Assembly: GCA_949291575.1 (NCBI GenBank)
Contig: CASEWH010000014.1
Coordinates: 1-35,697 of the forward strand
Length of the DNA: 35,697 bases
Reading direction: 5' to 3'
Source of the DNA: an uncultured bacterium
GTDB taxonomy: Bacteria; Bacillota_I; Bacilli_A; RF39; UBA660
The translations under genes were made by a program, and so were the position numbers. The notes beneath the pieces are model-generated. The model was not told the DNA's origin, ran no database searches, and was given only the letters and a program-made list of their open reading frames with translations. The first letter of the stretch is position 1; each line of letters starts with the position of its first letter. Below, in pieces: positions 11,092-11,444 of the stretch.

Positions 11092-11107
11092 ATTCATATC
11101 TGATACT

Positions 11108-11136
11108 TTGACATCAATATAAAAGTATGGTATTAT
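11108..11136 (+). promoter_or_regulatory. SigA promoter of sRNA copy 1
   Basis: TTGACA(11108-11113)-17-TATTAT(11131-11136) with the TG extension. Confidence 0.8.
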
Positions 11137-11142
11137 GTATTT

Positions 11143-11250
11143 AGCAAAGAGATTTGCATAAAATAAAAATGAATACATCTATTAGAATAGATGCTTTCAT
11201 AGAATGGTTTATAAGCATCTAATTCCCAAAGGAATTAGATGTCTTATTTA
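11143..11250 (+). ncRNA. Putative antitoxin sRNA, copy 1 (~105 nt)
   Basis: Promoter; 5' GCAAA-GAGA-TTTGC GNRA hairpin; terminal hairpin CATCTAATTCC-caaa-GGAATTAGATG plus U-rich tail; conserved in a second copy at 16118-16200. Confidence 0.7.
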
Positions 11251-11331
11251 TATGAGTAGATAAATAAGTGAGATGATTATGAATAACAAGATAAGGATAA
11301 TAACAAAGTAAGCTATTTCTCTTTTTGTCAT
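11248..11331 (-). CDS. 27-aa single-TM peptide MTKREIAYFVIILILLFIIISLIYLLI, putative type I toxin
   Basis: Manual translation. SD AGAAAGGAG (11349-11341) lies 9 nt from the ATG. Not in the ORF track. Confidence 0.72.
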   Translation of the reverse strand: MTKREIAYFVIILILLFIIISLIYLLI

Positions 11332-11343
11332 ACACTCTTTCTC

Positions 11344-11414
11344 CTTTCTATAAGATTATAAATGTTATAGAAAGCATCTAATTCCAAATAAATGTATTCA
11401 TATATAGTATAGCA
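11344..11414 (-). promoter_or_regulatory. Peptide-gene promoter and structured 5'UTR
   Basis: Extended -10 TGcTATACT (11414-11406). A 10-bp stem CTTTCTATAA/TTATAGAAAG (11344-11353/11365-11374) covers part of the SD. Confidence 0.6.
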
Positions 11415-11416
11415 TT

Positions 11417-11444
11417 AAACCCGTATCTTTCTAGTACGGGTTTT
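11417..11444. terminator. Hairpin downstream of pheT
   Basis: AAACCCGTA-N9-TACGGGTTT. Confidence 0.65.

Follow-up and report, generated by a model that had tools for sequence, protein, structure and literature searches.

The 35,697-nucleotide window analysed here, positions 1 to 35,697 of contig CASEWH010000014.1 (C14) in assembly GCA_949291575.1 of an uncultured bacterium of the class Bacilli, carries two short convergent genes in a single intergenic spacer, i.e., a minus-strand open reading frame (ORF) for a 27-residue membrane peptide and a plus-strand gene for a small RNA (sRNA), and together they probably form a chromosomal type I toxin-antitoxin module of a previously undescribed family. 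Its layout is most plausibly a mixture of those of the Fst/RNAII and BsrG/SR4 systems, and among the genomes searched the family appears restricted to one family of uncultured Bacilli with small genomes. The ends of both transcripts were predicted from sequence, and the features are collected in Table 1.

The peptide gene, the small RNA gene and their predicted transcripts

The peptide ORF, its Shine-Dalgarno (SD) sequence and the extended -10 of its promoter lie where a preliminary description of the window had placed them, and the substitution pattern indicates that the ORF is a gene under purifying selection. From all fetched loci we collected 66 module instances (two more were cut by locus ends), which reduce to 40 distinct sequences from the genus. 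An ORF of 25-28 codons behind a AGAAAGGAG-like SD is kept in 37 of them, once with a C-terminus altered by a deletion, and is lost in three. Among 24 distinct ORF sequences, the 16 with 25 codons (the eight of other lengths were excluded) have a mean proportion of synonymous differences (pS) of 0.44 and of nonsynonymous differences (pN) of 0.079, which gives a pN/pS of 0.18 over 120 non-independent pairs; the differences at codon positions 1, 2 and 3 number 333, 280 and 753. The 18 distinct own-genus peptides follow the consensus MNKREKSYFIIIIILLFIIITLIYR, and other genera encode MTKRELSQFIIILLLFFIVITLLFK and variants of it. A small (<70 residues) hydrophobic peptide with a transmembrane segment is what the part of Fozo et al. 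2010 available to us describes for type I toxins (PMC2887945). The absence of a charged C-terminal tail, claimed at first, has to be corrected: the C-terminus has one or two polar residues at most, and most homologues end in one basic residue (R or K). The promoter form TGnTAnnnT is kept in the aligned own-genus copies, and in other genera a TATAAT stands equally far from the conserved 5' element of the mRNA.

The sRNA gene was likewise found as first described, with a TTGACA-17-TGnTATTAT promoter and an RNA of about 105 nucleotides (nt) that begins with a GNRA hairpin and ends in a terminal hairpin. When the range 10900-11700 was scanned for promoters and terminators against shuffled expectation, the sole terminator-like site was the plus-strand one at 11215-11242 (1 against 0.0 expected). 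The 110-nt RNA 11143-11252 folds into three hairpins, H1 to H3, at -34.2 kcal/mol against -14.9 +/- 3.0 for shuffled sequences (z -6.5), and none of 200 shuffles was equally stable. The own-genus copies fall into a group A, in which the promoter is conserved and H1 is of type GCAAAGAGATTTGC or GTCAAAGAAATTGAC, and a group B with the promoter TGATACAAT in place of the TTGACA type and H1 of type ATGAAGAGATTCTTCAT. Over all loci, H1 is a 4-5-bp hairpin with covarying stems in 32 of 33 distinct variants (the loop is GNRA in 14), and the extended -10 lies directly 5' of it in 33. In the alignment of H2 and H3, 91.3% of the cells are paired, compared with 33-44% in a control with the partner slid. 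All 22 modules from other genera (16 loci) keep one order 3' of the stop codon, namely H3', a spacer, H2' with a T-run (H2' and H3' being the hairpins as read on the minus strand), and then the reverse complements of H1 and of the extended -10; a strict regular expression flags 17 of them, and the remaining five are off by a base or two.

The toxin mRNA would be longer at its 3' end than first assumed. Its conserved 5' element starts 6 nt past the -10 in the own genus and in other genera alike, which sets the predicted extreme 5' end. The preliminary description had the sRNA and the mRNA overlap at H3 only, and this probably does not hold: H2' is followed by an invariant ATTTTTATTTTATG in the aligned copies and the tail past H3' is not T-rich, so H2 read on the minus strand is probably the better terminator there, the mRNA end is placed near 11158, and the perfect overlap with the sRNA would reach about 90 nt. 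Folded as a 244-nt RNA (11399-11156), the transcript has an energy of -69.6 kcal/mol against -37.9 +/- 3.7 for shuffled sequences (z -8.5), and in this fold its first 30 nt pair with the last 28 before the T-run over about 29 bp. This closure was tested in 43 distinct modules as a duplex of the 5' 34 nt with the 3' 44 nt. The mean cognate energy was -27.9 in 21 own-genus types and -33.8 in 22 types from other genera. Pairings across lineages gave about -20 and shuffled 5' ends -9.1 +/- 3.1, and none of 860 shuffles reached the cognate mean. Lineage-specific 5' ends pair with their own 3' partners (e.g., L084, L085 and L092), and the 5' element is itself a degenerate copy of hairpin H2.

The SD is partly locked in a stem, as had been proposed. 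This anti-SD hairpin formed in all 22 distinct own-genus 5' untranslated regions (UTRs) that were folded, out of 25 listed, with stem sequences that differ, and 41 of 46 distinct UTRs across genera passed an automatic rule; the five misses were failures of the SD regular expression and include the type of the window's own copy, whose pairing was seen when it was folded. The stem is maintained by compensatory changes. In the modelled full-length mRNA, the mean probability that the SD core is unpaired falls from 0.20 in the free molecule to 0.01 when the overlap is blocked as if bound by the sRNA, which fits, within a purely thermodynamic model, a relay of 3' binding to the SD.

A further contact may be made in the 5'UTR. 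The direct repeat noticed at the outset is exact over 14 nt (11213-11229 and 11372-11388 are 94% identical over 17 nt), and a 14-nt perfect complementarity between the sRNA and the non-overlapping mRNA was reached by one of 1000 dinucleotide shuffles of the sRNA. In 24 of 37 copies the match is perfect over 12 nt or more, in four it extends over 9-10 nt at the same place, and L021 (unit at 1199) has a compensatory pair, AATTCC to AACTCC with GGAATT to GGAGTT. RNAduplex of the whole sRNA with the whole 5' part of the mRNA gave an untidy pairing with long loops, and 16 of 500 shuffles were equally good. One sub-lineage (L019, L020, L022, L035, L040) has the 5'UTR segment AATTAGATGC swapped for AAACTAAGCC, by which the match to the H3 arm of the sRNA is lost; the ORF is intact in four of these five.

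Table 1. Features of the module and of its relatives in the window; transcripts and their ends are predictions
Feature	Position	Strand	Remarks
sRNA promoter	11108..11136	+	TTGACA (11108-11113)-17-TATTAT (11131-11136), TG at 11128-11129 (extended -10), 11/12 matches
Predicted antitoxin sRNA, ~107 nt	11143..11250	+	H1, A-rich spacer, H2, H3/terminator and T tail
H1	11144-11157	+	GNRA loop GAGA
A-rich spacer	11158-11168	+	between H1 and H2
H2	11169-11200	+	sRNA hairpin
H3/terminator	11213-11245	+	followed by T tail
Predicted toxin mRNA, ~240 nt	11156..11399	-	5' element, anti-SD hairpin, SD, ORF, H3', H2', T-run
Toxin promoter	11433-11406	-	TAGAAA-16-TATACT with TG, 9/12 matches; extended -10 at 11414-11406
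mRNA 5' element	11399-11370	-	-10 lies 6 nt before G11399
5'UTR element GGAATTAGATGCTT	11372..11385	-	complementary to 5' arm of sRNA H3 (11213-11226)
Anti-SD hairpin	11344..11374	-	arms 11344-11357 and 11361-11374, 14 nt, 93% complementary; pairs AGAAAG part of SD
SD AGAAAGGAG	11349-11341	-	5' of ORF
27-codon membrane-peptide ORF	11331-11248	-	product MTKREIAYFVIILILLFIIISLIYLLI; basic N-terminus MTKRE and one hydrophobic helix of ~20 residues
H3' / H2'	11245-11213 / 11200-11169	-	hairpins of mRNA 3'UTR; T-run after H2'
Conserved hairpin CCCGTA...TACGGG	11417..11444		upstream of and overlapping the toxin -35
Orphan sRNA-gene paralogue	16082..16203	+	promoter, H1, H2 3' arm, H3/terminator; 68% identity to 11093-11325
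Decayed peptide-ORF remnant	~16200-16262	-	without ATG, frameshifted, without promoter; faces orphan sRNA

Distribution of the module and its coverage in RNA libraries

In a DNA search of 40 relatives, many genomes of the genus proved to carry nearly full-length copies, spread over several loci per genome and including three in tandem. In their alignment H2, the A-rich spacer and the mRNA 5' element are almost invariant, and the ORF and the loop regions are variable. An exact-pattern scan of one genome per species (about 185,000 species) returned 38 matching stretches, all of them from metagenome-assembled genomes labelled uncultured Bacilli, Tenericutes or bacterium, or Candidatus Onthousia, which NCBI files under Bacilli incertae sedis. 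The peptide itself is conserved in related genomes: within the same bacterial family, a profile of 25 positions built from 17 peptides (E<=1e-3) had matches in 78 of 401 genomes, representing 61 of 214 genera, with up to eight per genome and tandem sets spaced at about 350 nt. A class-wide draw gave matches in 10 of 49 genomes of the host's own family and in none of 350 genomes from 29 other families of Bacilli. The copies recur at a few chromosomal sites, i.e., after a FemAB-family gene, between genes of 264 and 612 residues, before a PFOR-like gene and near a 195-residue gene, and no phage genes were in view around the copies at the loci examined. Two exact core patterns had no match in viral contigs, a DNA search in distant mode had none in GenBank phages, and a tblastn search with the peptide (E<=1, low-complexity filter on) had none in plasmids.

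That the family is an unrecognised one, as had been supposed, was borne out. Rfam returned seven sub-threshold hits for 10900-11700 (E 0.58-8), all far below the gathering score, and no family at the gathering score for eight loci with modules; we take it that Rfam holds an RNAII model. For 17 family members at E<=10, Pfam returned no Fst, Ldr or other type I toxin model, the best hits being unrelated (E 0.016-4), NCBIfam had no family match for the peptide, and an exact look-up of four peptides in a collection of 15 billion proteins found none of them. Among the titles and abstracts retrieved, none describes the lineage or the peptide, and the supplementary tables of T1TAdb and of Fozo et al. 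might list related candidates. Detection of type I systems is considered incomplete, since searches set out from families already known (PMC12390103, available to us in part). Here a whole family of peptides below 30 residues with their antisense RNA has been invisible to annotation, even though more than a quarter of the genera sampled from this uncultured gut lineage, whose genomes are strongly reduced, carry it.

Contigs assembled from RNA libraries cover the module in all four runs labelled as metatranscriptomes (two studies), some at 99-100% identity, and contigs of paralogous copies are present as well. A 243-nt contig from run X3 corresponds exactly to 11157-11399 and fits the predicted mRNA. 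The depth in run X4 (6-10 over the module, 0 in the bins 10900-11142 and 11467-11574 and about 2 over pheT) was not counted as evidence, because missing cover in contigs proves nothing.

Comparison with known systems and rival explanations

The preliminary description likened the module to par/Fst loci. Convergence, direct repeats and a hidden SD are indeed there, but the main complementarity is probably the overlap of about 90 nt at the 3' ends, which makes the layout as much of the BsrG/SR4 type as of the par type. According to the part of the T1TAdb paper available to us, Gram-positive families place the antisense RNA 3' of the mRNA, and the antisense RNAs of Fst/RNAII and SprA1/SprA1as leave the ORF uncovered and interact outside the overlap; SD/anti-SD pairing, a 5' stem-loop and long-distance 5'-3' pairing are named as key determinants (PMC8594479). 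The same text gives, for Fst/RNAII (par of the Enterococcus plasmid pAD1) and its relatives SprA1/SprA1as, convergent genes, an extra complementarity in the mRNA 5' region outside the overlap and a 5' structure that hides the SD (PMC8594479). All of these recur here, with H3 as a two-way hairpin, i.e., a shared terminator, and the 14-nt 5'UTR match outside the overlap. Unlike in Fst/RNAII, the 5'UTR repeat is not over the start region but some 20 nt upstream of the SD, the overlap probably spans two hairpins, and the peptide is charged at its N-terminus and nearly apolar at the other end. The toxin stands outside the Fst/Ldr peptide family, and the antitoxin RNA matches no RNA family described in Rfam.

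BsrG/SR4 and TxpA/RatA of Bacillus subtilis resemble the module in having an antisense RNA that covers tens of nt at the 3' end of the toxin mRNA; their overlap reaches into the ORF, whereas here it stops at the stop codon (PMC8594479, in part). The predicted 3' end of the sRNA (~11250) only touches this codon at 11248-11250. The peptides are unrelated, and no prophage context was seen at the module loci. SR4 reportedly has a dual action, its 3' binding also tightening the sequestration of the SD in the 5' region, and our model suggests a similar effect. With hok/Sok and AapA1/IsoA1 the module would share an mRNA whose two extreme ends, 5' and 3', pair with each other, a closure that is predicted in 43 of 43 distinct modules. 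Those systems are Gram-negative, and their mRNA overlaps the antisense RNA fully in the 5' region or over the ORF (PMC8594479, in part), whereas here the antisense RNA complements the same 3' segment with which the mRNA 5' end pairs.

We hypothesize that the module works as follows. The extended -10 at 11414-11406 would give an mRNA of about 240 nt (11399 to ~11158) that is kept quiet in three ways: a hairpin pairs the AGAAAG half of the SD, the start codon region pairs with the coding region, and about 29 bp join the extreme 5' and 3' ends. The plus-strand promoter at 11108-11136 would give the sRNA of about 107 nt, perfectly complementary to some 90 nt of the mRNA 3'UTR, and the 5' arm of its H3 could also bind 14 nt of the 5'UTR. 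Pairing would begin at the hairpin loops and extend into a long duplex with the mRNA 3' end, which may serve as a substrate for a double-strand RNase; at the same time it would displace the 5' end of the mRNA, and this end would then complete the anti-SD helix. The single-helix membrane peptide would be produced only when the sRNA runs short and could then damage or depolarise the membrane.

Several observations weigh against this interpretation. Promoter-like sites in 10900-11700 are at chance level (8 against 7.1 expected), so the promoter match alone has little weight. Real covariation in H2 and H3 is limited to the base of H3 and is nearly nil in H2 and the H3 core, because these hardly vary. 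Termination after H2' is a prediction, made for a minus-strand tail that is not T-rich past H3' in the own genus, and the mRNA 5' element could fold a 5' hairpin of its own rather than pair with the 3' end. The SD is mostly paired in all modelled states. The 5'UTR match is weak or lies elsewhere in 9 of 37 copies (two through G-U changes, four through a replaced segment), and in L019, L020, L035 and L040 it is replaced while the ORFs are intact; it therefore cannot be essential everywhere. The RNA-library contigs carry neither strand nor transcript ends and might derive from DNA, and as the ends of the X3 contig coincide with the border between invariant and variable sequence among the paralogues, they may be assembly break points. 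Finally, the peptide matches no known toxin family in Pfam or NCBIfam.

This last point would equally suit a small, harmless membrane protein whose amount is adjusted by a cis-antisense sRNA, with the same layout and no relation to toxin-antitoxin systems, as would the position of the module at a few fixed chromosomal sites beside housekeeping genes, away from mobile elements, and the lack of matches in viral contigs, phages and plasmids. We consider this explanation unlikely, since the occurrence in many copies with tandem amplification, the retention of the sRNA through repeated losses of the ORF, and the layered translational silencing are all like type I toxins, and unlike ordinary small membrane proteins, as characterised in the parts available to us of Fozo et al., who report tandem duplication and missing annotation of such genes (PMC2887945), and of the T1TAdb paper (PMC8594479). 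A trans-acting sRNA with other targets, in which case the RNA would be the functional part and the ORF opposite it secondary or incidental, is less probable still. In its favour, the ORF varies far more within the genus than do H2, the spacer and the mRNA 5' element, five species retain copies with only the sRNA at a syntenic site, and further loci of the genome begin with the same sRNA 5' domain. Against it, purifying selection acts on the ORF, the peptide has been preserved in genera whose UTR sequences have changed, and at those further loci, too, small hydrophobic ORFs face the sRNA 5' domain.

The 25-nt inverted repeat that flanks the ORF (11159-11183 and 11387-11411, 80%), the many copies per genus and one copy (L062) beside a TnpB-like ORF could also point to a non-coding repeat resembling a miniature inverted-repeat transposable element, with the ORF open by chance. 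We regard this as very improbable: 37 of 40 copies retain the ORF, with differences biased to the third codon position, the peptide profile is specific to the bacterial family, the copies stand at the same few syntenic sites rather than scattered, and each has promoters and an SD.

Taking the type I module as the preferred reading, a wider picture can be proposed only tentatively, and we would not expect all of it to stand. In it, the lineage, with genomes of about 1 Mb, maintains a large arsenal of type I systems restricted to it (at least 10 loci in the 1.22-Mb genome of the host), in which an antitoxin 5' domain shared by all (promoter, GNRA hairpin, A-rich spacer) is joined to interchangeable toxin cassettes. 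These would act as a three-way switch, in which the mRNA 5' end mimics the antitoxin and both compete for the same 3' segment of the mRNA, and in which the freed anti-SD strand passes the effect of antitoxin binding at the 3' end on to the SD, a mode of action undescribed for the known families. The many natural variants with compensatory changes provide a ready comparative data set on how 5'-3' closure of the mRNA, SD sequestration and antisense pairing combine, and they raise the question why 1-Mb genomes retain so many such loci.

Related loci and genomic setting

The host genome comprises 1.22 Mb in 117 contigs with 27.8% G+C. The module (11108-11447) occupies a 461-bp spacer between a FemAB-family gene (9790-11091, plus strand; Pfam E 3.9e-64) and a long minus-strand ORF (11553-13976) that we read as a putative pheT. 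The hairpin at 11417-11444 belongs to the module, as it is present in all own-genus copies at different loci, with a paired C-to-T and G-to-A change in several, and it is possibly an insulating bidirectional terminator or a shared operator. It is followed by TTTTCGTAAATAT (11417-11456), and the same 13-mer occurs on C19 (~3690-3710) after a different palindrome, upstream of the toxin promoter of a second family.

The window also holds an orphan copy of the sRNA gene (16082-16203), which abuts the stop of a 56-residue gene (16269-16439, minus strand). The same arrangement, with a decayed ORF, is found at the syntenic site in four other species (L024-L027). In L059 (~1100-1225) the 5' arm of the sRNA H3 is joined straight to the mRNA 5' element and the ORF is gone; it looks as if the toxin gene was deleted by recombination of the two direct repeats. 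The copy without ORF in L062 adjoins a 382-residue ORF (6239-7387, plus strand) whose start, MEIYKAYKFRLYPTEEQ, we take to be typical of TnpB/IS605-family proteins.

The sRNA 5' domain, i.e., the extended -10, a short hairpin and a AUAAAAUAAAAA spacer, also heads about 10 other loci in the 1.22 Mb of the host genome, on C19 (~3300-3700), C27 (~2750), C29 (~5650), C73 (~6520), C74 (~8100), C2 (~450), C57 (~5220), C80 (~3560 and ~4620) and C69 (~8950, at the contig end). Opposite them lie other small ORFs, whose products have a basic N-terminus and a single hydrophobic helix, e.g., MKTKTFIIKVLKLIPVILFSLAFLVLTFKIK, MSKKDFLVSTLLFIIILLIVLLFVVIIILI and MTKKDFLITMLIVIIILLIIYN. A species without the main module family carries three tandem units of the second family, each of about 383 nt and with a 30-residue ORF (MKTKTFILKFLRLISLILLLSTLLVLAVKN) and a convergent sRNA-like gene (L067, G024:C14:20300-22300). 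On C19, too, the mRNA 5' end is a mimic of the sRNA hairpin, although the sequence is another one.

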